In this document: positions 3,936-31,459 of the stretch, one piece after another
Layout: each line of letters opens with the position of its first letter
Numbering within the stretch: position 1 is the stretch's first letter
Source: a virus
Taxonomy: Duplodnaviria > Caudoviricetes
DNA length: 31,459 bases
Reading direction: 5' to 3' (one strand)
IMG/VR virus record: IMGVR_UViG_3300049722_000032
Location: 1 to 31,459 of that record
Notes under the pieces: model-generated
Database searches by the model: none
The model's input: only the letters and a program-made list of their open reading frames with translations
What the model was told of the DNA's origin: nothing
Made by a program: the position numbers and the translations under genes

Positions 3936-4002
3936 ATCCCGCGTCGCTGCGCTCCTGGGATAATTCGCTTTGGGCTTCCTCACGGAAGCCACAGGCTCAT
4001 TA
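3936..4002 (-). repeat. Family E double-hairpin element, stop-type (begins with the gp48 TAA)
   Basis: TAAT-GA-GC..GGCTTCC-gtga-GGAAGCC..GC-GA-ATTA, then TCCC..GA-GC-gca-GC-GA..GGGA. Confidence 0.9.
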
Positions 4003-4524
4003 AACGTAAGCATAAATAACTTGTGTGTGCGCCGGTTTCAAATCGGTAAAAATACCTTCCAGCGCGGTGGCCACCGGGCCGTCAATGAGTCTGTCACCGG
4101 CTCTTGATTGGCCCGCCCGAAAATACACAAGCGGCGTCCCGGTGAATGTTAAGCGCCAGCGGAATATGCCCTCAGAACCGAGGCCGTCCGTATTGGCCAG
4201 TAATTCCTCGATTGTGAACGTATAACCCATAGATGTCGCCAGTGACGCGAAATATGTTAATGATAATTTTCCTTCCTCGCGCAACTTGGTAATAACACGC
4301 AACTGGCGCGTCTGGAGAGTGTCACCATCATCTGGTGCCACACCGCAAACCCACTCCCAGTCTGTTATTGTGTAGTCGCACGTTTGAGGCAGCATTTCCC
4401 TCAGTAACAATTCCGCGCTGACCTGCGCGGTATCCAACGCTGATCCTTCCAGGGCGATATCGTCATCAAATACGCCGGTAAACTCCAGCGGAAATAATAG
4501 TTTTAATGTGTCTGAATGTTGCAT
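4000..4524 (-). CDS. Mu gp48-like baseplate protein (YmfQ/DUF2313)
   Basis: L..L.P, LL.E..P.T....I.DWE...G, FRAG.SRAGDRL, LKPAHT motifs. Confidence 0.9.
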   Translation of the reverse strand: MQHSDTLKLLFPLEFTGVFDDDIALEGSALDTAQVSAELLLREMLPQTCDYTITDWEWVCGVAPDDGDTLQTRQLRVITKLREEGKLSLTYFASLATSMGYTFTIEELLANTDGLGSEGIFRWRLTFTGTPLVYFRAGQSRAGDRLIDGPVATALEGIFTDLKPAHTQVIYAYV

Positions 4525-4540
4525 GTTTTTTCCTGTTTTA

Positions 4541-4577
4541 AGATTGCCACGCCGCCTGAGAGGCGTCTCGCAATGAC
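4541..4577 (-). repeat. Family B palindrome (GTCATTGCGAG..GGCAATCT)
   Basis: Hairpin starting 2 nt after the gp47 stop. Confidence 0.85.
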
Positions 4578-4579
4578 AA

Positions 4580-5779
4580 TCAGCTTACCGTAATTGTGCC
4601 CGGCCTTATCATTTGGTATGTCGTCGCCGTGACATCTGTCGCGGGCGTGGATACTGTCGCGTTGGCTGCGCCTGCATCCATCGCAATCTGCACAAGTTTT
4701 GCTTTATAAAGCGTCTGGCCGGGGATCATCGTCTCCATGTAGGCAGTAATATTAGCCGCGATCGCGGTCCGATCAACGCCGGTACCGGTGACAACCATCG
4801 TGACGGCCTGAGAGAGCGTCGTCGGCGCAAAGATGGTGACTTTTGAGGCGGTTACCGGACGCAGGGGGTCAATATAGGCTTTGACCTTAGCGAGGAGGCC
4901 TTTGACAACGTAGGACTTGCCCGTGGCGAGAAATATATCGTCGACCAGCGTCAATTGAGTCGGGCTATCCAGCGATACCACCGTAGTTTCAATATTATCG
5001 ATTATATTTTCCACGGTGTCGCCCGGCTTAATTGTGTAAGTTGCATCATTGAATGCGCCGGAGCTGTCGATTAGTTTATTCGCGGTGGCGGTGGTGTTCA
5101 CGCCCGTGTGCGAATGGATTATATAAGGATCACCGGCGAAGGGGAAAATATCGGCTACCAGTGTTAATTGAAGCGCGCTATCGACAGTGATGACTGTTGT
5201 TTGTGTTCCGCGCAGCGGATTTTCGACGATATCGCCTGCCGCCACTGCATGGGCGGTCGTGAAATGTGCGGCGGAATCCACCAGTTTTCCCGCTGTGACA
5301 GAAGTATTGACGCCGATCCGGGCCGATGAACTGGGGATCTCGCTTCCGGCGATATCAACATCGGCCAAGACAATCACATCAACCGTACCCAAACCCTGTC
5401 CCAGCGGCACACACCAGGCTTCGGACACACCGGTAATTTCCTTCGCCCACTTGACATAATCGTATTTATTGCCGCCAGCCGGTGGACGACGGATGCGGTC
5501 AAGAACGCGGGCCAGATAATCCGAATCGGTTTCAGATGTAAGGCGCGAGATATCATATATCCAGCCGTGATGCTCGAGATAGGCAGCGTCAGCCGTGTCG
5601 GCAAATATTTGTTTTGAAATCCATTCCTGATATTTATAAAGTCCCCAAAGCGCCGATGCCAGGCAGGCGCTTTTCATATAGATCAGAGAGCCCTTCGACA
5701 GGTCGCCGGTCGGGAACTGATTCTGCCAGTCAACCAGCAGGGCCGCGAATAATGTGTCAAAATCCTTTTGAAATTGCAT
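4580..5779 (-). CDS. Baseplate J/Mu gp47-like protein with an inserted tandem domain
   Basis: QIFADTAD..YLE.H, ETD..Y..RVL.RIRRPPAGGN..DY..WA, GLGTVDV, RPVTA motifs. Confidence 0.92.
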   Translation of the reverse strand: MQFQKDFDTLFAALLVDWQNQFPTGDLSKGSLIYMKSACLASALWGLYKYQEWISKQIFADTADAAYLEHHGWIYDISRLTSETDSDYLARVLDRIRRPPAGGNKYDYVKWAKEITGVSEAWCVPLGQGLGTVDVIVLADVDIAGSEIPSSSARIGVNTSVTAGKLVDSAAHFTTAHAVAAGDIVENPLRGTQTTVITVDSALQLTLVADIFPFAGDPYIIHSHTGVNTTATANKLIDSSGAFNDATYTIKPGDTVENIIDNIETTVVSLDSPTQLTLVDDIFLATGKSYVVKGLLAKVKAYIDPLRPVTASKVTIFAPTTLSQAVTMVVTGTGVDRTAIAANITAYMETMIPGQTLYKAKLVQIAMDAGAANATVSTPATDVTATTYQMIRPGTITVS

Positions 5780-5784
5780 TGTTA

Positions 5785-5820
5785 AAATCCCCCTCTATCC
5801 CCCTTTAAAAAAGGGGGAGG
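5785..5820 (-). repeat. Family A hairpin plus SD element
   Basis: CCTCCCCCTTT..AAAGGGGGA-TAG-AGGGGG-ATTT, just before the gp47 ATG. Confidence 0.9.
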
Positions 5821-5824
5821 ATCA

Positions 5825-6199
5825 TCATATGACTTCAATAAACGTGGTAAACGCTACCGGTTCTGCTCCGGAATATGGCGTCACTTCGACAAGCAGTTTG
5901 AGCCGGTATAAATCCTGTGGCCGGTCGCGTTGGGCATAGACATTCACGGCGGACGCTTTCCCTGTATCGATCATCCATTGCAGAGCTTCCTTGCAGTAAT
6001 CCACGGCCAGGCGCATGGTCGTGTCCGTGTTTTTGGCCCGCTGAAGCAGGTGCAGGCGCGAGCCGAATGAAGTATCCGCAAAAAAAGACCCGCGTTTGAC
6101 CATTAGCGATAAATAGATATTGTTCATTATCGTCGTGGCCTTTTCAAATGTCATTTGACCGAGGCCGGTTTGGTTTTCTATTGTGATTGCGAAGTCCAA
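5825..6199 (-). CDS. Mu gp46-like baseplate wedge protein
   Basis: SL...RGSFFAD..FGSRLHLL.R.K and EALQWMID.G motifs; TTG start. Confidence 0.9.
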   Translation of the reverse strand: MDFAITIENQTGLGQMTFEKATTIMNNIYLSLMVKRGSFFADTSFGSRLHLLQRAKNTDTTMRLAVDYCKEALQWMIDTGKASAVNVYAQRDRPQDLYRLKLLVEVTPYSGAEPVAFTTFIEVI

Positions 6200-6202
6200 T
6201 TT

Positions 6203-6237
6203 AAATCCCCCTCAATCCCCCTTTATAAAGGGGGAGG
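6203..6237 (-). repeat. Family A hairpin plus SD element
   Basis: Same consensus; fills the gp45-gp46 gap. Confidence 0.9.
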
Positions 6238-6240
6238 TAC

Positions 6241-6828
6241 CTATCCCGCTTTCGTGATGGTTGTTTTTACCGCGGATGCTGACAATTTAACGACCGGTTT
6301 GCCGTCGCTGCCATGCGTGTGGTTGTCATAAAGCGTGATTAAACGTTCATCGATCAAGGCGTATATCGTGCCCTGGCTGCCTAAAATGATCGAGGGGCTG
6401 TTCATCTGCACGCTGGTAGCGGCCACAACGGTCACTGCCGGGCTGGTAATTTCACAACTAACGGACGCCGTGACTTTGGCGACTTTGGTCGTGATGTCCA
6501 CTTCGTTTTCCACGGTAGCAATGAGTTTATTGCCGCTGACGATTTCTATTGTTTTATCCCGCTTCAAGTGGATTTTATCGCCCTCATCGGTATAGAGGGC
6601 GACTTCGCCGTTTTCGATGGCCAGCCGGTACCGGCGATCATCCGAGGCCACGGCAATAATGTGATTGCCTTCACGGATGATGATGATCTCTGCACCGGCC
6701 AGGGGCCGGGATGTAAAGCCGTAGTGCTGGAAATACTCGCGCTCATCGAATGATTCGCCAGTCCGTCCGGAAGAGGAAAAGAGCTTGATGAAGCCTTCTG
6801 TTATTGCGGTTACGATGCCTCTGATCAC
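6241..6828 (-). CDS. Mu gp45-like baseplate spike (gpV)
   Basis: EYFQHYGFTSRP..GAE, DDRRYR, GEVALY..EGD and the HTH iron-binding tip motif; GTG start. Confidence 0.93.
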   Translation of the reverse strand: MIRGIVTAITEGFIKLFSSSGRTGESFDEREYFQHYGFTSRPLAGAEIIIIREGNHIIAVASDDRRYRLAIENGEVALYTDEGDKIHLKRDKTIEIVSGNKLIATVENEVDITTKVAKVTASVSCEITSPAVTVVAATSVQMNSPSIILGSQGTIYALIDERLITLYDNHTHGSDGKPVVKLSASAVKTTITKAG

Positions 6829-6832
6829 TTTA

Positions 6833-6868
6833 AAATCCCCCTCTATCCCCCTTTATAAAAGGAGGAGG
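6833..6868 (-). repeat. Family A hairpin plus SD element
   Basis: Variant with a compensated stem (CCTCCTCCTTTT/AAAGGGGGA). Confidence 0.88.
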
Positions 6869-6871
6869 TAA

Positions 6872-7966
6872 CTACGCGACTATGCCGGGCACTCCCAGTT
6901 TTACTTTGGTGATGGGGCCGGTTTGTTTGTCCATCTCAAATGTGCGGCCATAAATCAGATAATCTTTATCAATTCCTTTTTTCCCGTTAAGGCTCTGCGT
7001 TTCGTCTTTAATGTGGCACATCTTATTGATCGCCCAGTTTTGCCCGTTCTGACTGTGCCTGCCCACGGTATAGACAAGATGAGTCCCTTCTCTGCGGCGT
7101 TTTTCCATGATCATTCGGGCGCGCATGGTTGGGCTGACATTATCGTTGTTGTCCGTGGTAACAAACGGCTTATCGAAAGGAAACTCAGGATCAATGCATG
7201 GTTTGCCATTATTGCTGGTATTAATCTGTTTGGCTTCCAAATATCCTTGCGATCCCTGCTGCTGGCCGACAACACTATATTTTTTGTAGCGTTTGGATAT
7301 GTCCTGCTCCACTTCGGATTCGATCACGTTATTGCCGAGGCCGCTTTTCAGCAACGTCAGTTTATATTCCGCCGCGCCTTTGGCGAGCGGGCGACCAAAG
7401 ACCAGCGTGCCGTCCGGCAGGCAATAGAAGAGCATCCCGCGGCTTAATGAATAGTTTTTCAGGACATCGAATATCGTCATGCCCGGTTCGATCTGGCCGA
7501 TCTTCTGTGCGGTATCCAGCGCGGAAAGATAACCGCTGGACGCAGCTTTTTTCTTGCCTTTTAGTTTGCCAACCACATTATCCTGATAGACGATAGTTTT
7601 GCGGGTGATGAAGGGCGTTTTAGCTAAGAGTAAATCGGCCAGCGCTTTGAGTTTCATGCCGGTGACGGTTTTCCAGGGCGGCTCGCAATAGGAATCAAGC
7701 AGGAGGCCCATATAGTCACGGCCTTCAACCGCCAAAGAGACCTCGCCCTTCTTGACTTTGCGGATTACCTTATCGATAATGCCGGTCAGCTCCAGTTTAT
7801 CGTTGATCTTTAATTCGCATAACTTTCCGGCAATAATTTCCGTTTCCGGATTGGCCAATTCCAAATGAAAGGCATCGGCAGGCGTGTACAGATCCGCCGC
7901 GATGGAATATTTTAAAAAGTGCTCAATCTTGACCTTATTGACAAAGAGTTCCACTTTATCGGGCAT
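6872..7966 (-). CDS. Mu gp44/gpP-like baseplate hub protein
   Basis: Y.I..DL.TPADAF.L, GRD..GLLLD, IEPG.T.FDVL, NNV motifs. Start at 7966 (MPDKV) with a GAGG SD. Confidence 0.9.
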   Translation of the reverse strand: MPDKVELFVNKVKIEHFLKYSIAADLYTPADAFHLELANPETEIIAGKLCELKINDKLELTGIIDKVIRKVKKGEVSLAVEGRDYMGLLLDSYCEPPWKTVTGMKLKALADLLLAKTPFITRKTIVYQDNVVGKLKGKKKAASSGYLSALDTAQKIGQIEPGMTIFDVLKNYSLSRGMLFYCLPDGTLVFGRPLAKGAAEYKLTLLKSGLGNNVIESEVEQDISKRYKKYSVVGQQQGSQGYLEAKQINTSNNGKPCIDPEFPFDKPFVTTDNNDNVSPTMRARMIMEKRRREGTHLVYTVGRHSQNGQNWAINKMCHIKDETQSLNGKKGIDKDYLIYGRTFEMDKQTGPITKVKLGVPGIVA

Positions 7967-9245
7967 AGACGCTGACCTCGCCATCCGTAAAGTTAGGTTG
8001 TTTAATATTATTGACTTTAACGAGCCGTTCCGCATCGGTATAGGGCAGGCCATAACGCAGGCAGACCAGATGCAGCGGCATGGGATTGTCCAGAGTGACT
8101 TTGATCATTTTCTCGCGTTGGAGGCGCACGGAGTTGACCTGCGTAAGCAGCGCCGCGGCCATTATTTTTAGACTATCCATATCGCGGGCTATTTCCACTG
8201 CGGCTTCGATCCGCGCGCGGACAATGGCCAGTGTGTCTTCCAGTTCTCTGATATTCATCACCTGAAAATCGGAGTCGCCATCAAGAGATGCTTGCTGATC
8301 GGCTGTGTAGATCGCGGCGGCTTCCAGCGCCAGACGCTGGGCGCAGGTAATCGTTAAATGCTTTTGCATAACCTCCGCCGCGGATTGACCTGCCGCAGCT
8401 TTGCCAAGATTGACATAGGAATTTTGCAGATCGCCAAAGGCGGAGTCCAATTGCGACAAAAACTGGCGAGGAGAGTTCCACAGGGAATCGAATAAACGCG
8501 CTATTTTCTCCACGGCTCCGGATTGGGATCCCAAAATCCTTCCAGGAAGATTTTCGGCATACGTTATTGTGGCCTGAAGAGAGTTGATGGGGCTTAGTTC
8601 CTGGTTGACTCCGGCCTGAGACGTGGAAAGGTAATTCTCGACAGCGCCCACAAAAGACCGCGCCTGCCCGGAAAATTCCTGCAATTGCGCCAGTAACCCG
8701 GTATCGGCATCGAGGATTTTAGTTGCGACTCCGGAATCGGCGGTCGGAAGGGCATCTTTGATGTCGGTTTCCAGCAATTGCTCCTGTTCATCCTGTCCAT
8801 TCTGGTAGGCGTCTTCCGTGGCGGATAGAACGCTGGACTCCGTCGCGTCTTCCAGTGTGCCGCGCATTTGCTCGACAAAGGATATATCAAGAGTCGCTTT
8901 GCGGATGCTGTCATCATGCTGCACGACGATGGATTCGATTTTGCCCTTCAGCAGGCCGTATTTAGGGTGAACAAAATCGATGAGTTCTTTTTCTTCCAGA
9001 CTGTCTATAAGGTCGATGTGGTCGGCGTAGGTTTCCTGCTCCGCGTCATCCCAGAAATAGCATTTGACACGGATAGTATGAGCTTTCTGGCCCATATCTT
9101 CCAGATCAGCGCCGTCCGCATAAGGATAGTCGTAGCGGGCGATCGCCTTTTCAAAGGTATCCTCGATGGTCTCCATTTGAATGGTTACATCGGCTAACTG
9201 CCCGGTATTGAGTTCCAGCATTGATTGATCGAAGTTTGCTGCCAT
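7956..9245 (-). CDS. Mu gp43/gpN-like DNA circularisation protein
   Basis: YDYPYADGADLEDMG, FVHPKYG and the C-terminal PLHLV...YG..N.I..PNF motif. Confidence 0.92.
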   Translation of the reverse strand: MAANFDQSMLELNTGQLADVTIQMETIEDTFEKAIARYDYPYADGADLEDMGQKAHTIRVKCYFWDDAEQETYADHIDLIDSLEEKELIDFVHPKYGLLKGKIESIVVQHDDSIRKATLDISFVEQMRGTLEDATESSVLSATEDAYQNGQDEQEQLLETDIKDALPTADSGVATKILDADTGLLAQLQEFSGQARSFVGAVENYLSTSQAGVNQELSPINSLQATITYAENLPGRILGSQSGAVEKIARLFDSLWNSPRQFLSQLDSAFGDLQNSYVNLGKAAAGQSAAEVMQKHLTITCAQRLALEAAAIYTADQQASLDGDSDFQVMNIRELEDTLAIVRARIEAAVEIARDMDSLKIMAAALLTQVNSVRLQREKMIKVTLDNPMPLHLVCLRYGLPYTDAERLVKVNNIKQPNFTDGEVSVYAR

Positions 9246-9331
9246 AATGAGTCCTAGATTTTTCCTAACTCTGCGACGGAAAAATTGTAGAGCGAATTAT
9301 CCCCGCAGCGTAGCGAAGCGGGATTTGTACC
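9244..9331 (+). repeat. Family E element, start-type (supplies AGGA SD and abuts the gp43 ATG)
   Basis: ATAAT-GA-GT..stem..GC-GA-ATTAT, then CCC..GC-gta-GC-GA..GGGATTTGTACC. Confidence 0.9.
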
Positions 9332-9357
9332 TTTATGTTTACTCATTGTTAACCTGC

Positions 9358-11028
9358 TCAATTAAAGTTGCCGCGTGCTACGTTAATTACAAAATCAGCG
9401 CCATTGTCGCCAATAGCAGTTAATTTCATATCCTTATCGAATCTGAGATTGATTGTGTTTTTTACTTCTGGTTTAATTTCTTGTTTTTCAGGATGACGCC
9501 AATCATAGAGCGCGTCACCCCACCAACCATGATAAACATCCTTTGCACCTTCGCTTATCCAATTTTTACCGTCGCCACCGCGCGCCACATCAAGCAATGA
9601 ATGTAAAGCAGTTCCAACAGTTAATATGGCCGCGCCAATTGCCGTAATTGTTAATACTGCACCGACAGCACCGAGGCCGCCTAACCATTTTACGGCGGTA
9701 ACCATTTTATCCATCGTTCCGGGGCCTCCTGCGCCTAATATTCCACCTGCGGGCATATTGGTGACAAAGACTGGCGTCACGCCGGTGGCGGCTTCAATAG
9801 CTTTGCCTGCGGCGATGCCGACGCCGGTTTTTCCTAATCCGCCAAGTATATTTTTAATGTTGCCATAAACAAGCCCACCGATCACAGCAGCCGATAGACC
9901 TGCTGCTGTCCAACCTGCCGCTTTGGTCGCAGTGGGATGATCAGCCATAAATTTTACCGGCTTTTTAGCCAGGTCATAGATCGTGCTCAGGTCTGTTTTG
10001 ATACCGCCGAGACTTCCTTTGACCCGGTTTAACTGATTTTCCCATGTTTCCGCGCCTGCTTTCGCTCTGCCTGTGGCTATCTCGCTGGAATGACCCATTT
10101 CGTCGATGCCTTTTTGGAAATCCTTCATGTGGGAAAAAACAAAGTCCATAGCCTCTTTGCCGCCCGCGCCAAAGAAACTTTCGGCCTGTTTAAGGTTTTC
10201 CGCCGCGCTGTGTGTTTTGCGCATTTTATTGATGTACTTTTCAAGGTCTGTTAATACCTCAAGTTGGCTGCGCCCTTTCACTTTAATGCCATGCTGCTCT
10301 AAAATAAAGCCCTTGTTATTGATCATATCCAGAACATTATTGAGCGCCACTATACTTCTGGTTTTGTCGATGCCCGCCATTCCCAGGCCGCGTATCATTC
10401 CGAGCGATTCTATATAATCTTTTTTGCCGCCGCCATGAAGAGCTAACCGCTGCATGACGGTATCGAGTTGTTCCATATTAATGCGGGACGTAATCAAAGC
10501 ATCTCCCACGCCCTCGATCTCTTGTCTGGAGAGTTTAAATAATTTAATCATTTCGACGGTGCTGGCGGAGGTAAGACTCAAATCATCGCCGGTTGCCTTG
10601 GAAATTTTATCGGCTGTGGTTAAAATTTGGAGAATGTCAGCCTGATTAAAATTAAGAGATAATTTACTCGCGGTTTGAAAGGACTTCCCTAGATCCTGTC
10701 CTTTTTCTCCAGCGAAGGAGGCGATCTTATTTTTCAGGATGTCCATCTCGGCGCTGTTGGCTTTCAGATTGACGCGCATGCGCAGAAGGGCGTCGTCAAT
10801 CGGCATATAGTCGGTAACGGAAAAGAGTTTTTTGAGCACAAGGCCGGAAGAAAGCGCTGCCGCGGCGTTACCGAGAAAGCCGAATTTCTGAGTGAGGTCG
10901 GAGACGATCTGGCCGGTTCTTTGCGCGAAGCCTTGAAAGCTTTTAAGCGAACGTTCGCCTTGCTGAATTCCCTGCTGGAATTTCTCCGACTTGGCGATCA
11001 GTTCTAAAAATACTTTCATGTCCGGCAT
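9358..11028 (-). CDS. Tail tape measure protein
   Basis: Position between chaperone and gp43; helical Ala/Gly-rich sequence; VTPVFVTNMP motif. Confidence 0.9.
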   Translation of the reverse strand: MPDMKVFLELIAKSEKFQQGIQQGERSLKSFQGFAQRTGQIVSDLTQKFGFLGNAAAALSSGLVLKKLFSVTDYMPIDDALLRMRVNLKANSAEMDILKNKIASFAGEKGQDLGKSFQTASKLSLNFNQADILQILTTADKISKATGDDLSLTSASTVEMIKLFKLSRQEIEGVGDALITSRINMEQLDTVMQRLALHGGGKKDYIESLGMIRGLGMAGIDKTRSIVALNNVLDMINNKGFILEQHGIKVKGRSQLEVLTDLEKYINKMRKTHSAAENLKQAESFFGAGGKEAMDFVFSHMKDFQKGIDEMGHSSEIATGRAKAGAETWENQLNRVKGSLGGIKTDLSTIYDLAKKPVKFMADHPTATKAAGWTAAGLSAAVIGGLVYGNIKNILGGLGKTGVGIAAGKAIEAATGVTPVFVTNMPAGGILGAGGPGTMDKMVTAVKWLGGLGAVGAVLTITAIGAAILTVGTALHSLLDVARGGDGKNWISEGAKDVYHGWWGDALYDWRHPEKQEIKPEVKNTINLRFDKDMKLTAIGDNGADFVINVARGNFN

Positions 11029-11100
11029 AGTGAGTCCTAAATTTCCGCGTTGCGGAAATTGTAGAGCGAACTACCCCTGAGCCGTTAGGCGAATGGGGTT
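11028..11100 (+). repeat. Family E element, start-type (tape measure ATG)
   Basis: TAGT-GA-GT..GC-GA-ACTA (covarying stem), then CCCCT-GA-GCC-gtta-GGC-GA-ATGGGG. Confidence 0.9.
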
Positions 11101-11107
11101 GTTAATC

Positions 11108-11132
11108 GGCGTGCACGGGGTGCCCGCCCTCC
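11108..11132 (-). repeat. REP-like palindrome (GGAG head)
   Basis: GGAG-GGCGGGCAC-ccc-GTGCACGCC. Confidence 0.6.
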
Positions 11133-11134
11133 GT

Positions 11135-11162
11135 CCTGGATTCCCGCCTACGCGGGAATGAC
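11135..11162 (-). repeat. Family C palindrome (dRS3-like GTCATTCCCGC..GCGGGAATCCAG)
   Basis: Starts 2 nt after the stop at 11165. Confidence 0.9.
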
Positions 11163-11164
11163 AA

Positions 11165-11347
11165 TTACTTCCGTTTAACAACATACTTTTTACCCGTGCC
11201 CTTTTCTTTGGGCGTTCTCAGATCCGTGTAGGCTTTCATATATTCCATTGCTTCGCCTTCGGGCATGGCCAGCGCTTCCGAATAGGTGAAGCCGATTTTC
11301 AGCAACATCACGATCAGTTGGCGGCTGTTTTTATTCTTTGCCGCGAA
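11165..11347 (-). CDS. Frameshifted extension of the tail assembly chaperone (gpGT-like)
   Basis: The +1 frame is open from TTT-C at 11348-11345 to TAA 11165: FAAKNKNSRQLIVMLLKIGFTYSEALAMPEGEAMEYMKAY... Confidence 0.65.
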   Translation of the reverse strand, partial: FAAKNKNSRQLIVMLLKIGFTYSEALAMPEGEAMEYMKAYTDLRTPKEKGTGKKYVVKRK

Positions 11348-11651: not shown

Positions 11652-11656
11652 ATTTC

Positions 11657-11690
11657 AAATCCCCCTCAATCCCCCTTTAGTAAAGGGGGA
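11657..11690 (-). repeat. Family A hairpin plus SD element
   Basis: Consensus match before the chaperone ATG. Confidence 0.9.
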
Positions 11691-11695
11691 TGTTT

Positions 11696-11732: not shown

Positions 11733-11737
11733 AATTT

Positions 11738-12094: not shown

Positions 12095-12098
12095 TTTT

Positions 12099-12132: not shown

Positions 12133-12142
12133 AGTTTTTGTT

Positions 12143-23841: not shown

Positions 23842-24281
23842 TTTGCTACCTCCAGCCAGTCTGTTAATACTTCCACGATATCTTTTGAGTCTTCTTTGCC
23901 AATGCCCAGGAATGGCCGGGCGGGCATGGTGACTTTATGTCCACGGCCAGTTTTTCCGCCCAGTTGATGGATCGCCCCGTAAACTTTATTTGTTCCGACT
24001 CGCAGAGTATTTCCTCCACTGACCTGATGGCGGATAGAGTCGCGCAGGTGATGACTTTCCGTGAGAATCATCGGATTCTTTTTGTGTTTCAGCGTGGCCG
24101 GTTTTAAGGGTTTCCAGGGTTTGCCGTCTGCATCACGCTGGCGGGTAAACCGCTCATCGGTCTGCCGCAGCATTCTCTCTCCGATAATATTCAGCGCATC
24201 GGTCATGTTGCCGCCCTTGCGGGCGATCCGTTCGAGTACGGCGTTGACTCCGGTGTCGTGTATTTGAATTGATATTTCCAT
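23838..24281 (-). CDS. Mu gpG-like virion morphogenesis protein
   Basis: RF..Q.D.DG.PWKPL, IL....HLR.SI, VGTN..YGAIHQLGG, MPARPFLG motifs. Confidence 0.93.
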   Translation of the reverse strand: MEISIQIHDTGVNAVLERIARKGGNMTDALNIIGERMLRQTDERFTRQRDADGKPWKPLKPATLKHKKNPMILTESHHLRDSIRHQVSGGNTLRVGTNKVYGAIHQLGGKTGRGHKVTMPARPFLGIGKEDSKDIVEVLTDWLEVAK

Positions 24282-24292
24282 TTTTTCTTTTT

Positions 24293-24320
24293 CCTGGATT
24301 CCGGCCTTCGCCGGAATGAC
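24293..24320 (-). repeat. Family C palindrome
   Basis: 4 nt after the portal-gpF stop. Confidence 0.9.
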
Positions 24321-24324
24321 GTTA

Positions 24325-26655
24325 TTATTTCATTGCTGCCTGTCCTACGTTGTAGCCCCAGCCTTTATCGATGCCTACCGGTTCGCCTGTTCGTGGATCT
24401 ATCGGCGATGGCGGCGCTTCCGCTTTTCCATTCCCTGCCGCTTTTTTCTGATCCCGTTTTGTGGATGCCAGCACGGTGCATTTGCAGCCCCAGCCGTTAG
24501 GCGGGTAATGTGTCGTCCACCAGGGATCATCCCTCGGTAGTGTTATCCCGTTCCAGGCCAGATGCTGAGGACGCGGATGAACGCTGTTCCCGTGCCGGTA
24601 TTCGAGGTACGGATAGGCTTCCACTACAGTCGGCTCCTGCAACTGCTCCCAGCGGCCCGCCGCATACGATGTCCGCAGGTTGGTGGAGTAAATAACTTCA
24701 CTGCGCCAGTTCCTTGATCCATTGTAATTCCAACCGTGTTCTTCCACGATGTTGTCAAAATCCTTGCGGAAAGTTTCCAGCGTGGTGCCCTCAATAATGG
24801 CCTTATCCACTACATCGCGGAAATCGGTCAGCAGGTCTTCTTTGTAAGCGCCTGCCACTGAAAAGGCTTTGGCGTGTTGCTCTTTCCAGAGATCCGTCCA
24901 CTTCAACGTGGGGATATTTATTTTTTTGCGAAAGAACTTTTCCTGCTCTTTAAACGGTAGTTTAAAGACCGCCATCAATGATGACGAAATCCCCCTCAAT
25001 CCCCCTTTAGAAAAGGGGGAGGAGGCGAATTCAGGGCTTTTTTTTTCCGTCAATCCCGCTAATGTGCCGGTTTCATCACCCACTTCATATCGTCCGGACA
25101 TCTCGGCCAGCATCAATGCCCGCGCGATGGTATTGCCGAGATCTGACGAATCCATTTCTTTAAAAAGTTTTGCTATGCCGCCGCGAAGATCTTTTAGACT
25201 GCTGGCGGAATTGGTCAGTTTTTTTATTTGGGCGATCATCTTGTCGGTATTGGCCGTCGCCATATCAGCCAGCTGGCCGGTTAGATAATCGGCGACATCC
25301 GTATCATCACCCACAGCCTCATCCCGCGTCGCTGCGCTCCAGGTATAATTCGCTTTGGGCTTCCTGCCGGAAGCCACAGGCTCATTAAATTTGGCGTCGG
25401 ATAATGATGCGGTGGCGGTTTTCAAAGTTATTTTGACTAACTCCTCGCCTTCCTGCGGGGCAGGGATGCCGTAGGTCTCGTAGAAATAATCAGTTGTCAC
25501 CGGCAGGCCGCAATCAACCACGAGCGTTTTATCGATGGCGCTGCGGGCGGTCAAATCGGGTTTGGCGTTGGCATAGGTTTTTATTTTCGGATAGTCCGTG
25601 ATATCCGGGAAGTTCAGATCCACAATCCATTTGATCAGGGAATCATTGAGGCAACCGTCGAGTAGATCGGCGTCGGCTTCGGTGATTTCCTGCCGCACGT
25701 CGGCCTGGTTTTTATCATTGCCGAGTTTACCGGGCGTGCCTTCGGTCGATGCCGTCTGGCCCAGCACGGCTTTGGAAATCTGTTTGTCCATGTATTCGCA
25801 AAGCTGTTCGTGGGTGACGTTCCCGGCGCGCGATGCTTCCAGAAATTCCAAATTCATATTATCCGATATGGAAATGCCGGTATCGGTCTGGATGGCCTCG
25901 ATGGCTTCCAGTAATTGCTTTTGTTTGTCCGGCTGGGTGCCCGGCGGATACTTGCCGACCACGGTGGGCATGCCGAATTTTTCCAGGAAGATCATCCAGA
26001 ATTTGACGCCGTTTTTTTTGAACCAGACCGGCCACCACAGACGCTGGCCCAGCCCCCGGCCGTAAGGATTGTCGGAATCTCCGTAGGTGAGCGTAATGAA
26101 TTTGCGCGGCGGCAGAGGTTCACCGATAGTCATGTTTTGTAAGGTGAGCAGGTTCTGTTCCCGCTCCGGCGTGAAGATAAAACGGCGCGGATGTTTGCCG
26201 ATCAGTTTTTGGATATTGATTTTGTTGCCGGTGACTTTCCATATGATTTCGGAACTATAAAAACCGTATAGGATGGCTTTGAGCAACTCCTGCCGCGCCT
26301 GGTCGAAGTTGCAGTCCATCAGAACCTGGGCAACAAAATCAGCGATAGTCTGTTCCTGGGAAGTGGATGCCGGACGTCCCGTTTTGCGGGCGGACTTGGC
26401 CGGTGTGATTTCCCATTCCTTGCCGACAATGGCCATGATCCGTTGCTGTAATACCGATCCCGCATGAGCATCGCGTTCAACTTCGTCATAAAGTTTGAGG
26501 CCCTTGCCCATCGCTTCGGAGCGCAAAACCGGATCAGGATTTTCCAGTCTCTGGATATAGCCCGAATAGATGTCGAAATCCTTCTGAATGGTGGCGATTT
26601 CATCTAAAATCGGCTTGCCGGATGAAAGTTGTCGTCCAAACTGGTCGAGCAGCAT
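24325..26655 (-). CDS. Portal (Mu gp29/DUF935) fused to gpF/gp30 minor head protein
   Basis: Portal motifs AILYGF, NPYG.GL, FLEKFGMP..VGKY, ISKAVLGQT; gpF motifs IY.TN....Y.AGRW and PPNGWGCKC. Confidence 0.93.
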   Translation of the reverse strand: MLLDQFGRQLSSGKPILDEIATIQKDFDIYSGYIQRLENPDPVLRSEAMGKGLKLYDEVERDAHAGSVLQQRIMAIVGKEWEITPAKSARKTGRPASTSQEQTIADFVAQVLMDCNFDQARQELLKAILYGFYSSEIIWKVTGNKINIQKLIGKHPRRFIFTPEREQNLLTLQNMTIGEPLPPRKFITLTYGDSDNPYGRGLGQRLWWPVWFKKNGVKFWMIFLEKFGMPTVVGKYPPGTQPDKQKQLLEAIEAIQTDTGISISDNMNLEFLEASRAGNVTHEQLCEYMDKQISKAVLGQTASTEGTPGKLGNDKNQADVRQEITEADADLLDGCLNDSLIKWIVDLNFPDITDYPKIKTYANAKPDLTARSAIDKTLVVDCGLPVTTDYFYETYGIPAPQEGEELVKITLKTATASLSDAKFNEPVASGRKPKANYTWSAATRDEAVGDDTDVADYLTGQLADMATANTDKMIAQIKKLTNSASSLKDLRGGIAKLFKEMDSSDLGNTIARALMLAEMSGRYEVGDETGTLAGLTEKKSPEFASSPFSKGGLRGISSSLMAVFKLPFKEQEKFFRKKINIPTLKWTDLWKEQHAKAFSVAGAYKEDLLTDFRDVVDKAIIEGTTLETFRKDFDNIVEEHGWNYNGSRNWRSEVIYSTNLRTSYAAGRWEQLQEPTVVEAYPYLEYRHGNSVHPRPQHLAWNGITLPRDDPWWTTHYPPNGWGCKCTVLASTKRDQKKAAGNGKAEAPPSPIDPRTGEPVGIDKGWGYNVGQAAMK
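24987..25022 (-). repeat. Family A element, in frame (SPFSKGGLRGI) at the portal/gpF junction
   Basis: Consensus match inside the ORF. Confidence 0.9.
25321..25388 (-). repeat. Family E element, in frame within portal (NEPVASGRKPKANYTWSAATRD)
   Basis: Near-identical to the intergenic copy at 3936-4002. Confidence 0.93.
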
Positions 26656-26758
26656 GATTATTTCGCCCCTGTCGCGCGCGAGGTTATGTTTATAAACAGT
26701 GTCAATGAAACTCCCGCCCCTTTGCCGCCGGTTAAGGTTGAAAATCTATTGTGGGGCA

Positions 26759-28303
26759 TTATTGCGCCCCCAAATAATTGCTCATGGATGCCCCGGATGA
26801 CACCCTCCGGATACCTGTTGAGGCAAAGCCGGTTACGCCGCCGCCTCTTTGTAAATCATTTATGGCCATTTCGGAGGCGTCCGGGCCGTCGTCATGGACG
26901 GTCGGGTTCATGATATAGACGAACTGCTCTTCCAATATCTTTTGATCGCTGTGTCGCTTTTCAAACTTCATCTTTTTGTGTTCCCACAAATATTCGCAGG
27001 TGCCGATGATGCGCGAATCGATTTTGCTGGTGGTGTGGTGGATGGGCCGCCAGGGTAAATAGCGTTTAACTTGGATTGCATAATTCTGGATCGCCTCATG
27101 AAGAAAATCCTTGAGCATGTTTTCTTCGACGACGACCGGCCCCGGATAATCATCATGCTGCGCGTAAGCAGCGGCGAAGAATTCTCCAATGGAGCGGCGC
27201 TTTATCCAGGCATGCATACAGAAGAATTCCATCTTCACCCGTTCCAGCCCCCAGGTGACCACACTGCGAAAATCGCTGCTGCTGCCAGCGGTGCTCGCCG
27301 GATCAACGCCGGTGGCGTAAATCAATGGCACGCGGAGAAGTTCGACTCGCTCAAAATAACTGACCGTCTCCTGCGGGAAAGGGCTGTCCTCTTCCGTTGA
27401 TTTGTTGCGGTACTCTCTATTGAATATCCGGGTTGTGACCAGCGACTTGCGGCGCATCAATTTATCCCAGGGCCAGCGGGCGGGCCATAAGGTGATATGA
27501 TTTTCTTCATCAACCACGGAATCATAGACTTTTGAGTTGTATAGTTTCTCGCCGGTCTCTTCGTTTTCGGCGGCGATCAATTGCGATATGGCGCTTTTGG
27601 CATGGAAGACGTTGCCGACCATCGTGGCCGAACAATCTCCCTCGATGCAGCCCAGGACTTCGCCCTGGATGAATTCGACGATGGCCCGGGTGACCGCAGG
27701 GCTTCTGACTGTGGCGTTGTCTTCCAGATCGTCGAGGCCGATATCGTCGGGACGGTAAGGGCCGAACTTCTTGCCGCGCCACTGATCGCCGCGTCCCAGG
27801 GCTTCGACCATCGTGCCGCCTTTGGTGACAAACAGGTCGTCTCCCCATATCTTTGTTTTGCCGATGGCCTCGCCGTAATCGTGGCGCAGGCGGGGGTTGT
27901 CTTCCAGTTCAACCTTGATCGAAACGCTGAACCGTTTGGCCTGATCATGGATATTGGAACCCAGCATAATATAGTGGCGCAGTTTCCGAGCGATCCGGTA
28001 GACGCGCAGGCCGAAGGTAACCACAGTGGTCTTGGCGTGATCGCGCGGCGCGCCGATAAGATTGAGACCGGGCATGTCGGCAATCTCGCACCATTCGGCA
28101 TGGCAGTCGGCGGGCGCGGACGGGAAATAATGCGGCATATAGGTTTGCATGAACGTAAGCGGATCAGCGCAACGGGCGATGCGTTCTTTCTTCTTTGCGG
28201 GCGTATCGTTTTCAAACGGAGAGACGCTCTCGGCAATCTTTTTGCGCAACGAGGCGACAAAGTCGTCAAACTGCGGCTCCGAAAGGTTCTGTCTTTTACG
28301 CAT
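26759..28303 (-). CDS. Terminase large subunit
   Basis: APRDHAKTT, RG....RPD.I.LDDLED, GVDPA, HDDGPDA motifs. Confidence 0.93.
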   Translation of the reverse strand: MRKRQNLSEPQFDDFVASLRKKIAESVSPFENDTPAKKKERIARCADPLTFMQTYMPHYFPSAPADCHAEWCEIADMPGLNLIGAPRDHAKTTVVTFGLRVYRIARKLRHYIMLGSNIHDQAKRFSVSIKVELEDNPRLRHDYGEAIGKTKIWGDDLFVTKGGTMVEALGRGDQWRGKKFGPYRPDDIGLDDLEDNATVRSPAVTRAIVEFIQGEVLGCIEGDCSATMVGNVFHAKSAISQLIAAENEETGEKLYNSKVYDSVVDEENHITLWPARWPWDKLMRRKSLVTTRIFNREYRNKSTEEDSPFPQETVSYFERVELLRVPLIYATGVDPASTAGSSSDFRSVVTWGLERVKMEFFCMHAWIKRRSIGEFFAAAYAQHDDYPGPVVVEENMLKDFLHEAIQNYAIQVKRYLPWRPIHHTTSKIDSRIIGTCEYLWEHKKMKFEKRHSDQKILEEQFVYIMNPTVHDDGPDASEMAINDLQRGGGVTGFASTGIRRVSSGASMSNYLGAQ

Positions 28304-28793
28304 TAATACCGGCATTCATGGTCTCCGTCTTAAACTTCATGGTCATGGCGTCAAAATCATTCGCCAGGGTTTTTAAACCTTCGGGATCGTTGTCCGTGAG
28401 CCAGATAACTATCCATTGTAAATTTTCTAAAAATACTTTTGCTTTGTCGTAGCCCACGCCGCCTTCGGTTGCCCGGAATTTAACGACCAGGGAACCGAGT
28501 TTGGAGAGGTTATCCAGGGAGCCGCCGTCTATCGCGCCTGGCTGTTTTTCTTCCGCGAAGGTCAGTTCGCGCTCCAGGAGGGCTTCCATCCGGATGCCGA
28601 AGTTTGCTTTGCGCGTGCGAGCCTTATCCCATTCGTCAAACTCCTCTCCCGGTTTTTTCGTCTGGCCCTTCCACGCGGCAAGCGTTTGGCGGGAGACATT
28701 CAACACGGCCTCGATCTCGGTCAGGTTCTTACCGTCGACGAACATCTGCCGGGCGACCGGCTCCAGTTGTACGCGTGCGCCTTTTTCAGCCAT
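28296..28793 (-). CDS. Terminase small subunit (HTH, DUF1804-like)
   Basis: EI...LNVSRQTL..WK..W HTH directly upstream of the large terminase. Confidence 0.8.
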   Translation of the reverse strand: MAEKGARVQLEPVARQMFVDGKNLTEIEAVLNVSRQTLAAWKGQTKKPGEEFDEWDKARTRKANFGIRMEALLERELTFAEEKQPGAIDGGSLDNLSKLGSLVVKFRATEGGVGYDKAKVFLENLQWIVIWLTDNDPEGLKTLANDFDAMTMKFKTETMNAGINA

Positions 28794-28876
28794 AGCGAGT
28801 CCTTATGTACCCGAAGCGCAGCGCGCGGGGACATTAGAGCGAGCTATCCCTGAGCGTAAGCGAATGGGATTCATAC
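28792..28876 (+). repeat. Family E element, start-type (small terminase ATG)
   Basis: ATAGC-GA-GT..GC-GA-GCTAT (covarying), then CCCT-GA-GC-gtaa-GC-GA-ATGGGAT. Confidence 0.9.
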
Positions 28877-28902
28877 AGCTACATTTATCCATTATTAACA
28901 TT

Positions 28903-28930
28903 CCTGGATTCCGGCCTCCGCCGGAATGAC
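28903..28930 (-). repeat. Family C palindrome
   Basis: 12 nt after the stop at 28943. Confidence 0.9.
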
Positions 28931-28942
28931 GATGTATATTCA

Positions 28943-29188
28943 TCACTTCAGTTCCTCTTCCAGTCGCTTTATCTCTGCGTGGGCGACGGTGAGGTCGGCC
29001 CATTTGTTTTTTAATTCATCCCACTGGCTGTCCACTTCATTAATAAGCAAGTCTTCAGGCCGCGTGAGACTGCAATCCAGATTGATGCAAATCGTCTGCG
29101 TCAAATTTTCGATTTCCAGCCGGAGACGCTTGACTGTATGTTCTAAATTAGTAATTTTTACGCGTTTCAATGCGTTCTGTAAACTCAT
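28943..29188 (-). CDS. Hypothetical coiled-coil protein
   Basis: GGAGGT SD; in operon; helical. Confidence 0.75.
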   Translation of the reverse strand: MSLQNALKRVKITNLEHTVKRLRLEIENLTQTICINLDCSLTRPEDLLINEVDSQWDELKNKWADLTVAHAEIKRLEEELK

Positions 29189-29192
29189 CCGA

Positions 29193-29570
29193 TCAACCTC
29201 CGGCTATTTCTTCTTCCGTAAAGAGCCGCATTGCTTTTTTCTTGCTGACTCGGGTCACGGGACAAAATTCATTTTGGGCTATGGCGGATTTAACCTCTGT
29301 CATCGACTGGATATTAAGGGTGACAATGTCGCGCAAATCTTTGGTGATCGCGGTGAAATCACGGCATAGGGAATCGTGCTCCTTATACATATCCCGTTGT
29401 TCCGTCATGTCATGCTGGTATCTTTCCAGGATAATTGTTATATCCTTTTTATGCTGGTCGATAACATTCCAGATTCGTTTGTTATCCGACCACCACATGA
29501 AAATCACTAATCCGAGAATACCGAAATCACTCACAATTTTCAGGACGCCAGTAAGATTAATTGCTTCCAT
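29193..29570 (-). CDS. Membrane-anchored coiled-coil protein (lysis-region, holin-like)
   Basis: One N-terminal TM segment (FGILGLVIFMWW) followed by a coiled coil. Confidence 0.7.
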   Translation of the reverse strand: MEAINLTGVLKIVSDFGILGLVIFMWWSDNKRIWNVIDQHKKDITIILERYQHDMTEQRDMYKEHDSLCRDFTAITKDLRDIVTLNIQSMTEVKSAIAQNEFCPVTRVSKKKAMRLFTEEEIAGG

Positions 29571-29572
29571 TT

Positions 29573-29809
29573 TTATTCGTCCATCCTTCCTTTATTTTCT
29601 GCCAGTGTCTGACATGTTACGCAGCGGGTGGCCCGCGGGTTTGCCTTTAATCTTTTGGCTGGTATCGGTTCGCCGCAATCGGCACATTCTTGTTTCTGTC
29701 CATTTTGACGGGTCTGAAGACCCGTCCTACATCTGGCAAAATGTTTATCCAAAGATACCTGCCGGAAAAGTTCATCGTTCTCCTGCGTCTTGTCGATGAT
29801 ATCGCCCAT
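29573..29809 (-). CDS. TraR/DksA C4-type zinc finger protein
   Basis: D..D..Q...E N-terminus and CADCGEPIP..R..A.P....CVTCQ. Confidence 0.93.
   Translation of the reverse strand: MGDIIDKTQENDELFRQVSLDKHFARCRTGLQTRQNGQKQECADCGEPIPAKRLKANPRATRCVTCQTLAENKGRMDE
29707..29730 (-). repeat. GTAG-type REP palindrome, in frame in TraR
   Basis: GTAG-GACGGGTCT-tc-AGACCCGTC, 24 nt. Confidence 0.8.
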
Positions 29810-29824
29810 TAGTCATTTCTCATT

Positions 29825-29846
29825 TCCCACGTCACTGCGCTCATTA
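29825..29846 (-). repeat. Mini family E element, stop-type
   Basis: TAATGA-GC-gca-GT-GA-CGTGGGA. Confidence 0.7.
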
Positions 29847-30095
29847 CGGTTTCGGTTCCGCTTTAAATTCGGAAAGGTTCTGCCCTAATTTCCCCAGACC
29901 AACGATCCCATTGGCCAGGCCGTAAATGATGTAAACACCGGTCGGGACATCCACCATTTCCCCTTTGTAACTAGAAACACCAGCCCACACCAACCAGAAA
30001 ACAATGTTCGAGATGAGTGTTGTGAATAGAAAAGCGAAACGGTTGCTGGAAAATGTCGTCGCGGTATCAAGTAATTTTTTAAAGAAATCTATCAT
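29844..30095 (-). CDS. Putative holin (2 TM)
   Basis: AGGAGGT SD; SSNR motif followed by two hydrophobic helices; lysis-cluster position. Confidence 0.65.
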   Translation of the reverse strand: MIDFFKKLLDTATTFSSNRFAFLFTTLISNIVFWLVWAGVSSYKGEMVDVPTGVYIIYGLANGIVGLGKLGQNLSEFKAEPKP

Positions 30096-30121
30096 AAGAG
30101 ACCTCCTATATTTCACCCTTC

Positions 30122-30186
30122 ACCCCGTTCACTGCGTTCAGGGGTAATTCGCTTTGGGATCCCATCCGGGATCCACAGGCTCATTA
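30122..30186 (-). repeat. Family E element, stop-type
   Basis: TAAT-GA-GC..GGATCCC-ggat-GGGATCC..GC-GA-ATTA-CCCCT-GA-AC-gca-GT-GA-ACGGGG. Confidence 0.9.
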
Positions 30187-30753
30187 AAATCTATATTCCG
30201 CTTGAATCATCGCCTTGCCGTCGCCCAGCGAATTAACTTCACCGTAAAGACCCAGATGAACAGCGCCAACCCGTAAAACGTCCCAGCGGCCATAAATATC
30301 CGCTTCATAATTTATTTTTGATGCTGTGCTGAATCCGTAACGCAAGCCGATCGCCTTTTTATTTTCCAACGCGAAAAAGGAAAGAGGTTCCTGCTTGGCG
30401 CTTATTTCTGTAACTCCGGTGGTTGTATCCATGACTGCCAAAATATCGGTTTTCCCGGTGGTATCGGTCGCGGGAGTTTGAGCCGTGGCGACTATCTGCT
30501 TTTTATCGTCATTGGCAATTTCGTCAGAGAGTTTAAGTTTTTTAGAGACGGCTTTCTTTTCGAGGGCGACAATCTGTTTGACCGGTAAATTAACGGACGA
30601 AAGCTTCGCCGCTGCCGGAATGGGCGTAACTTTGGTGTATTCCGTTTTCGATAATGTCACCGGATGGTGGTACCAACTCCAGACGGTAACAAAAATTATC
30701 AGGATAACAATTGCCACGATTATTGTGATTTTTGTTTTGTCAGCGGGTGTCAT
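30184..30753 (-). CDS. Membrane-anchored lysis-region protein, candidate spanin
   Basis: N-terminal TM; C-terminal amphipathic beta strands ending EYRF. Confidence 0.6.
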   Translation of the reverse strand: MTPADKTKITIIVAIVILIIFVTVWSWYHHPVTLSKTEYTKVTPIPAAAKLSSVNLPVKQIVALEKKAVSKKLKLSDEIANDDKKQIVATAQTPATDTTGKTDILAVMDTTTGVTEISAKQEPLSFFALENKKAIGLRYGFSTASKINYEADIYGRWDVLRVGAVHLGLYGEVNSLGDGKAMIQAEYRF

Positions 30754-30911
30754 TAAAGCCCTCTGCGCTTATTTTTTTTGAAGGTCTTGCTTCTGCCGGT
30801 GTAGCGATGATAGTAACCGGCTTGCGGAGTGCTCGCTGCGGCCATCGCCAGTCGATCAATCCCTTTCCCGGCCATCACCAGGCCTAACATCCCCAGTATT
30901 TTTTTCAGCAT
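30753..30911 (-). CDS. Small 52-aa basic protein (not in the ORF track)
   Basis: GAGGT SD; MLKKILGMLGLVMAGKG...KTFKKNKRRGL; TAATG-coupled to the next gene. Confidence 0.6.
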   Translation of the reverse strand: MLKKILGMLGLVMAGKGIDRLAMAAASTPQAGYYHRYTGRSKTFKKNKRRGL

Positions 30912-30928
30912 TTTTACCTCTTAATTTT

Positions 30929-30956
30929 CCTGGATTCCCGCCTACGCGGGAATGAC
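30929..30956 (-). repeat. Family C palindrome
   Basis: 4 nt after the endolysin stop. Confidence 0.9.
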
Positions 30957-30960
30957 ATTT

Positions 30961-31437
30961 TTATACGTCCTGAAAGTGCGGCATGTCGGGGTTCTTAAAT
31001 CTACCGCCCCAATGCAGCCCCACGGATTCGCCTATTTTGCCCGTTTCCATATAGTCGGGCTGTTGATCTTGATTTACGTCAACCTTGATATCCCAGACCG
31101 GTTGACCGTCACGGGTGATGGCAATATCGAAAGCGCGCGATTTGTCATTATTCGGATTGCCGTCATCGAGATCGACGAGGTGTTCGGAATGAAGCGTCCA
31201 TGTTACCTTGTGCTGGTTTTGCTGAAAACTGATCGGCGGAAGTTCGGCTAGAGCCCGTAACGTGTTGACGTTTTCCAGTGATTCGCGTCCTTGTGCGTAA
31301 AGGGCGCGTTGTTCTTTAATAGTTCGCGCCGTGCAGGTGATGAGAAAGGGAATGCCCGCAGCCTGCATAGCAACGGCGAAGAGTTTTATCTTCGCCTGCA
31401 ATGATGGTGTGCAATCTTCGATTCTGCGTGATGCCAT
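30961..31437 (-). CDS. Endolysin, M15-family L-Ala-D-Glu peptidase
   Basis: R...EQ.ALYAQGR, VTWT..S.H, AFD, GL.WGG.F...D.PHFQ motifs. Confidence 0.92.
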   Translation of the reverse strand: MASRRIEDCTPSLQAKIKLFAVAMQAAGIPFLITCTARTIKEQRALYAQGRESLENVNTLRALAELPPISFQQNQHKVTWTLHSEHLVDLDDGNPNNDKSRAFDIAITRDGQPVWDIKVDVNQDQQPDYMETGKIGESVGLHWGGRFKNPDMPHFQDV

Positions 31438-31459
31438 AGTGAGCCTCAATTTATATACC

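Follow-up and report, generated by a model that had tools for sequence, protein, structure and literature searches.

A tandem-GA double hairpin at gene junctions of a Mu-like prophage: probable gene-less ends of a small GIY-YIG nuclease cassette

How does a folded DNA repeat come to sit flush against the stop and start codons of a phage operon when no enzyme that could move it lies at hand? The question is raised by the virus record IMGVR_UViG_3300049722_000032 of IMG/VR (Duplodnaviria; Caudoviricetes), whose 31,459 nucleotides (nt) constitute the window of this analysis; the window is the entire record, and the record itself is a fragment. The late region of a Mu-like prophage in this window carries a repeat, here called family E, that consists of two hairpins and occurs as nine long copies, two minis, and two isolated ends. 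Hairpin 1 measures 42 to 65 nt and has a tandem GA core within a stem of free sequence. An earlier inspection of the letters alone (the sequence-only reading) had listed these 13 sites, all of which are present and at most 1 nt off, and had proposed a non-autonomous recognition site for single-stranded DNA (ssDNA). The case bears on the origin and spread of those repeats that resemble repetitive extragenic palindromes (REPs) and lack a RAYT. We estimate the probability at roughly 0.6 that the prophage copies are gene-less cassette ends, recognised as folded ssDNA and spread by a nuclease acting in trans.

The earlier view that structure is conserved over sequence holds up well. A descriptor that specifies structure alone (4 bp, GA-GA, 2 bp, inner stem) recovers six of the nine long copies; 30 dinucleotide shuffles give 0.17 on average, and with 13 other 2x2 loops in place of GA-GA it matches the window zero or one time each. 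The covariance model, whose training set included the nine long copies, finds exactly these nine in the window and nothing else. In an alignment of 105 copies, 85.4% of the cells are paired versus 66.8% after shuffling and 32 to 43% in slid controls; the covariation score is 0.471 versus 0.180, with 0 of 500 shuffles as high, and 16 of 18 pairs show double-sided changes. The structure was drawn from this same alignment, kinship among the copies inflates the covariation counts, and the outer TA/TA and GA/GA columns, fixed by the search, lie outside the test. A detector that makes no pairing demand at four stem positions returned 172 sites versus 2 in shuffled loci, and the third stem pair is Watson-Crick in 162 of 163 distinct cores, 13 of these with G:C for A:T. 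The strict-pattern scan gave matches in 54 viral stretches and at least 123 genome stretches (some 350 by estimate); 151 of its 175 distinct matches fold above the threshold, the other 24 being a mixture of chance matches and weak copies. Among 30 model matches in low-copy genomes, both GA are kept in 27 (by eye), and TTGT:ACAA and CAAT:ATTG variants occur. One long copy, at 14832, departs from the regular pair of hairpins, with a C-A mismatch in its basal stem and another hairpin, reaching about 14927, in place of hairpin 2. At shared orthologous sites, before an NtrY-like kinase gene and between Hsp20 genes (L438, L439, L443, L447; L111, L441, L449; L numbers denote loci), old copies keep compensatory pairs, which suggests that selection continues to act on the fold once a copy is in place.

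Family E is a host-wide repeat and is not specific to phages. By the covariance model, three genomes of Smithella/Syntrophaceae type hold at least 146, 147, and 136 copies among 150 scored candidates each, one Planctomycetia genome 45, and one Omnitrophota genome 9; matches occur in 41 of 121 genomes of the class holding Smithella and Syntrophaceae and in 74 of 141 Omnitrophota. The host copies form tandem and inverted mosaics between housekeeping genes, and in one locus (L411) inward-facing copies surround ssb. Related phages carry E in only 6 of 171 loci (some overlapping), their orthologous junctions being empty or occupied by unrelated hairpins, and gene order is conserved among the relatives of the window prophage. 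Given this host-wide spread, the presence of both orientations, and the state of these junctions, the idea that E delimits genes like cassettes finds no support.

The gene that does recur beside E encodes a small GIY-YIG nuclease, a type already named among the candidate enzymes by the sequence-only reading. Twelve Omnitrophota stretches were fetched around close pairs or single copies, and three of them contain a GIY-YIG gene of 76 to 84 amino acids (aa) inside housekeeping operons. The order of parts is the TAA of the upstream gene, hairpin 1, a CCCC-type inverted repeat, the nuclease gene, GGGG, a reversed hairpin 1, and a Shine-Dalgarno (SD) sequence or ATG; the nuclease gene is the loop of the CCC...GGG second hairpin. 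In all, 18 distinct single-domain genes of 75 to 85 aa have the hairpin 10 to 42 nt away (12 on both sides, 6 on one), and 30 of 30 arms face the gene, paired arms not being independent. From the protein side, 8 of the top 30 Omnitrophota loci are flanked, including three seeds; without the seeds the figure is 5 of 27 versus about 0.007 expected (0.07 at tenfold density), an expectation that uses an estimated genome total of about 265 Mb. Among 80 genome loci found from the protein side, six are flanked, one of them a seed; among 80 metagenome loci two are, one of which is likely a duplicate; and a further set of 32 loci yielded four more. The flanked proteins fall in Pfam GIY-YIG, with Tyr5, Tyr16, Gly18, Arg26, and Glu62 invariant in 12 proteins; judged by sequence, these tyrosines, glycine, arginine, and glutamate are putative catalytic-type residues. 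The nearest solved relatives are UPF0213 and SLX1; the predicted model has a pLDDT of 96, and Foldseek gave no match at an E value of 0.001 or below (best 0.0016). Neither the fragmentary window nor the five E-bearing phage records, mostly fragments as well, yielded this small nuclease gene, in keeping with the non-autonomous character first proposed, and a scan of viral contigs gave one distant match, without E. A degenerate copy upstream of a UPF0213-like GIY-YIG gene (L384) points away from that gene.

The junction upstream of groES, compared in 30 genomes, displays the cassette in several states: complete in two, hairpin 1 with a gene-less inverted repeat in two, single copies in four, minis in two, and other hairpins or nothing in the remainder. 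The single copies there resemble the window's own, and at one filled groES-groEL site AAGGAGT occurs a second time when compared with its empty relatives. Gene-less pairs retain the inverted-repeat words of the cassette, single copies hold a CCC...GGG hairpin at the position of its inverted repeat, and both cassette ends begin with TA. The stop-type and the SD/ATG-type copies match the upstream and the downstream arm, respectively; therefore the two orientations likely are the left and right ends of one cassette that lost its gene. The link between hairpin 2 and the nuclease cassette is firm, while hairpin 1 may be either the partner of the cassette or its favoured landing site. Since one and the same orthologous site shows autonomous, gene-less, and single forms, and since the fold is delineated by compensatory variants that occur in nature, mobility by a GIY-YIG enzyme is directly testable.

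The course of events that we propose is modelled on SsnA, an enzyme that cuts just one of the two strands, and this only in the form of ssDNA, at a distance of a few bases from its hairpin (PMC11893778). The nuclease would bind the folded GA strand of E and nick near the TA foot or the CCC junction, after which host repair would copy or paste the element at TA, sometimes with a short duplication. Gene loss and microhomology deletions would then give rise to single copies and minis, and selection would weed out all copies except those that re-establish a stop, an SD/ATG, or the reading frame; phage operons being compact, the sites left to E would be gene junctions and linkers, and no phage function of E would be required. 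If this is true, codon-flush prophage hairpins are explained without a phage code, and the very small nucleases become candidate ssDNA enzymes whose target may be a structure. More tentatively, at about one chance in three, E would represent a second class, distinct from Ssn, of mobile DNA driven by GIY-YIG enzymes, in which a nuclease of about 80 residues by itself reads a fold (tandem GA core and CCC foot) and not a sequence. With equal reserve, the same nuclease might move itself and its empty ends between phyla, rewriting stops, ribosome-binding sites, and linkers, with temperate phages as carriers.

Several observations weigh against the cassette-end reading. In the Syntrophia class (301 genomes), E adjoins the nuclease in none of the 48 loci examined out of 93 matches; nonetheless Smithella-type hosts of this class carry at least 136 to 147 copies each. 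Most homologues of the nuclease, mainly in Patescibacteria, lack hairpin 1; many sit inside tRNA, rRNA, and RNase P RNA genes (by eye); and the flanked proteins are found on several branches of a quick tree in which 60 of 114 forks are open. The E copies show no strand bias on one host contig of 2.1 Mb (43 of 80 clusters on the plus strand, no blocks, p = 0.71), nor on this contig, where the origin was not located, a bias to the lagging-strand template. With DNA parameters the basal stem closes in 31 of 198 cores on the GA strand and in 32 on the complement, and the GA strand has a small lead in energy (-10.2 versus -9.5 kcal/mol). The DNA folding parameter set is not known to have terms for sheared G-A pairs. 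By nuclear magnetic resonance such tandem sheared pairs are present in pyrimidine-GA-purine DNA (PMC10085684), and we infer that E as DNA folds in a strand-specific manner. Also on the negative side, neither this analysis nor the literature found shows a GIY-YIG member to mobilise DNA, and SsnA needs sequence as well as structure (PMC11893778), while the stems of E vary freely. Contigs of four public runs contain several copies unchanged and no junction from which a copy is missing; as rare variants are lost from contigs, this carries no evidential weight.

The first four of these observations are also what would be expected if the CCC-gene-GGG cassette were independent, favoured structured sites, and landed repeatedly in pre-existing E pairs, while hairpin 1 was spread in trans by a different enzyme, either a Y1/RAYT or a DDE transposase that targets TA. 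An inverted repeat of at least 8 nt without hairpin 1 is kept around the gene in 58 of 115 homologue loci versus 26 of 500 shuffles, a direct repeat of at least 9 nt is present in 24 of 106, and the Syntrophia-class cassettes have their own CCC...GGG repeat or a duplicated tRNA 5' end; moreover, both ends start with TA, and a duplication, of TA or of a short stretch, would fit some of the sites. Cassettes within 16S, 23S, RNase P RNA, and tRNA genes were noted by eye at L603, L618, L604, L606, L616, L582, L587, L553-L555, L567, L570, L600, L601, L615, and L660-L669; they often have a direct repeat of about 9 to 36 nt that restores the tRNA 5' end. Against an independent cassette stand the arms of seven cassettes, just 56 to 69% identical and in this unlike transposon terminal repeats, the CCC...GGG hairpin that single copies hold where the cassette has its inverted repeat, and the failure of any other enzyme to recur beside E. 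We consider this alternative unlikely, though a serious contender.

The search for such other enzymes covered neighbouring ORFs in general and Y1/RAYT, Ssn-type and other GIY-YIG, ORF6N, and integron integrase genes in particular. Clustering of the open reading frames (ORFs) around the first 151 copies brought out no enzyme family; a Pfam scan of 133 neighbouring ORFs gave mostly housekeeping functions, one tyrosine recombinase, one Fic gene, and no recurrent enzyme; and translations of 28 close-pair stretches (Smithella-type) and 30 low-copy-genome loci appeared by eye to be housekeeping genes. None of 38 Y1 (HUH) loci in 20 genomes is flanked by E on both sides; there is one array on one side (L184:900-1064) and one weak match. 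Ssn-type and other GIY-YIG genes in five hosts were discarded as partners since E does not adjoin them (0 of 18 loci), as was ORF6N (0 of 3). The IS200/IS605 rule that relates guide to cleavage site gave no consistent reading on the E ends.

The position of E relative to codons is non-random, as had been surmised. Among phage copies, 41 of 58 stand flush against a stop codon, an ATG on the opposite strand, or an SD, and among control TA(A/G)T sites 248 of 2251 do so; for host copies the figures are 25 of 145 versus 367 of 5369. The control sites include coding ones, so that non-randomness is shown and its cause is not. The stricter claims hold in part. Three of four long sense copies do start at a TAA stop (4002, 21894, 30186), the fourth (25387) lying inside the portal-minor head ORF, and the mini at 23431 is likewise in frame, inside the protease ORF. 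Four of five long antisense copies end flush with an ATG, their AGGA being a putative ribosome-binding site; the one at 20203 borders on a GGAGG that is already there, 6 nt ahead of the ATG. Such positions would suit an RNA signal kept at junctions to couple translation or to govern the stability or processing of the mRNA. The copies provide stops, SDs, and starts or lie right beside them; when folded with RNA parameters, 193 of 198 cores close their basal stem on the GA strand and 36 on the complement; and many REPs are thought to act as RNA (PMC3733652). Yet the co-directional operon of the window has four long copies sense and five antisense, which puts the GA strand in the mRNA only half the time, and the phage copies divide into 19 of stop type and 22 of reverse type. 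Together with the relatives whose same junction is empty or holds unrelated hairpins, and with zero Rfam matches at gathering score in the window, this makes an RNA signal improbable.

Still less probable, to a degree that we would hardly entertain it, is an attC-like ssDNA recombination site at which a tyrosine recombinase shuffles genes as cassettes. E has the paired foot, unpaired spacer, bulge, and variable tip of attC (PMC5027507) and lies 79 to 843 nt upstream of 4 of 13 integron integrase genes (L458, L459, L460, L463). However, RYYYAAC or GTTRRRY is found at 0 of 209 copies, at either end and on either strand, which speaks against the attC comparison made earlier; both orientations occur in one operon with a gene order conserved among relatives. 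The integrase was rejected as a partner because its proximity is near the expectation from copy density (about 2 or more predicted for 42 kb, 5 observed), and the four loci are perhaps orthologues of one another.

The coordinates of the copies are collected in Table 1.

Table 1. Family E copies and their setting in the window
Feature	Coordinates	Strand	Remarks
Late region (lysis, head, tail) of Mu-like prophage	2672..31449	-	No small GIY-YIG gene found in it
Long copy, sense (left-end type)	3936..4002	-	Begins with the TAA that stops the baseplate wedge gene
Parts of copy 3936..4002	hairpin 1 3961-4002; hairpin 2 3936-3960	-	
Long copy, antisense (right-end type)	9245..9324	+	Flush with ATG of Mu N-like baseplate hub gene; GTACC tail follows
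Long copy, antisense, TAGT:ACTA variant	11028..11098	+	Flush with tape-measure ATG
Hairpin 1 with C-A mismatch in basal stem	14832..14889	+	Flush with head-tail adaptor ATG
Long copy, antisense	20203..20294	+	From TAA stop of 119-aa ORF (20292-20294), via GTACC tail, to GGAGG of next gene
End only (5' arm)	20651..20661	+	Flush with ATG of 119-aa ORF; under covariance-model threshold
Long copy, sense	21807..21894	-	Starts at TAA stop of scaffold/decoration gene
Mini (5' end joined to hairpin 2)	23407..23431	-	In frame inside head protease ORF
Long copy	25321..25387	-	In frame in linker of fused portal-minor head ORF; F-N-E at F-A-E motif
Long copy, antisense, TAGC:GCTA variant	28793..28870	+	Flush with ATG of gene upstream of terminase large subunit
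Mini	29825..29846	-	Starts at TAA stop of 90-aa ORF
Long copy, sense	30122..30186	-	Starts at TAA stop of 189-aa ORF
End only (5' arm)	31437..31444	+	Flush with endolysin ATG, close to contig end

The junction of copy 3936..4002 is empty in L310, L303, L179, and L309, and L017 has a different subfamily at the same base as copy 11028..11098. At the scaffold-capsid junction E lies forward in the window and in L199 (same TAA) and reversed in L265, most relatives having other hairpins. The mini 23407..23431 reads F-N-E where orthologues have F-S-E, F-A-E, or similar, and the mini 29825..29846 has TAATG on both sides of the insert, of which the empty site of L050 holds a single one. A GTACC tail after hairpin 2 (window 9325-9345, 20284-20294; L008, L012, L015, L017, L026, L432, L449) belongs mostly to reverse-type copies, a GTACC-like tail following 12 of 36 of these versus 2 of 30 stop-type copies; it often ends in the stop of the upstream gene on the other strand.

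The first 2.4 kb of the window hold two host-type genes, followed by the late region with the genes for endolysin, terminase, fused portal-minor head protein, protease, capsid, sheath, tube, tape measure, and baseplate, all on the minus strand. Because related prophages sit in assemblies of Smithella, Syntrophaceae, and other Deltaproteobacteria, we infer a Smithella-like host. The portal and Mu F-like minor head protein form a single ORF of 776 aa (24325-26655), the linker of which has in-frame hairpins of other families in L255, L198, L014, and L287. Between the capsid and head-tail adaptor genes (14934-20651) lie six ORFs without a PHROG match, including a tandem duplication of 189 nt (15908-16285); in some relatives the adaptor directly follows the capsid gene, without this stretch.

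Other hairpins are frequent as well. Six are of CGTC/NTS type (11134-11163, 13648-13677, 20742-20771, 24292-24321, 28902-28931, 30928-30957), and in Smithella-type hosts Ssn-type GIY-YIG genes are flanked by such hairpins (L381, L383, L385, L389). Further families (C-run/G-run, GTCATTGCG-type) are found at 5782, 6200, 6830, 11654, 12096, 13837, and 24984, and also at 4539, 11694, 12141, and 22690; they occupy nearly every other junction, with one in frame in the portal-minor head ORF and, by eye, none in the two host-type genes. In L185 a RAYT-like Y1 gene is flanked by a palindrome that occupies junctions in the phage relatives L201 and L313.

The searchable, mostly open-access literature holds no description of E, in agreement with the earlier guess of an undescribed repeat; the supplements of PMC11893778 and PMC6006769 list flanking repeats that may bear on its novelty. 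Among known systems, attC sites likewise are imperfect hairpins with an unpaired spacer, a bulge, and a variable tip at gene ends (Nivina 2016, PMC5027507), whereas E has no AAC/GTT core, uniform orientation, or observed cassette shuffling. From miniature inverted-repeat transposable elements of the DDE type E differs in its divergent arms and in duplications of several lengths instead of a fixed one. The PATEs of IS200/IS605 offer a likeness in that they derive from an autonomous element with subterminal palindromes, of which they keep the termini and have lost the core (Dyall-Smith 2011, PMC3119063), the difference being that the presumed parent element of E lacks TnpA, has inverted ends, and shows short duplications at some sites. 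Certain variants of hairpin 2 look like the palindromes that surround one IS200-like gene (L180), where hairpin 1 was not found. The GIY-YIG insertions in rRNA genes of the Candidate Phyla Radiation apparently involve the same kind of small nuclease, with homologues in 16S and 23S by eye (Tsurumaki 2024, PMC11270868); these are not introns and are unlike homing endonucleases in behaviour and, as described in that source, come without terminal inverted repeats, a hairpin partner, or a dispersed repeat family.

REPs, REPINs, and BIMEs are closer to E in being extragenic palindromes that occur singly, as inverted pairs, or in tandem mosaics (Di Nocera 2013, PMC3733652; Quentin 2018, PMC6006769). 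REP/RAYT systems share with it the in-frame copies in genes and an enzyme gene flanked by the repeat, as in a REPtron (PMC6006769); REP termini also supply stop codons, and CGTC repeats were reported without a transposase (PMC3733652). A GTAG/GGAG or CGTC foot, however, occurs within 6 nt of the 5' end in only 4 of 209 E copies, and the partner of E is a GIY-YIG gene and not a doubly flanked Y1 gene, which speaks against the HUH/RAYT substrate first envisaged. The nearest parallel is Ssn/NTS, where a small single-domain GIY-YIG gene (CDD cd10448) has on both sides an oriented hairpin repeat, hundreds of copies of which are also scattered elsewhere, with mosaic clusters among them (Chenal et al. 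2025, PMC11893778); a derivation of Ssn from mobile elements is, in that text, only proposed. The degenerate SRM pattern, which as a positive control finds five of the NTS-type copies in the window, matches 0 of 209 E copies. Over most of their length, the E nucleases of 75 to 85 aa share 32 to 41% identity with the NTS-flanked proteins that the same hosts encode, and in the quick tree they stand apart from three NTS-flanked GIY-YIGs, which on sequence grounds points to a clade other than cd10448. What further sets E apart from Ssn/NTS is its tandem GA core, its free stem sequence, and a gene carried as the loop of a second inverted repeat.

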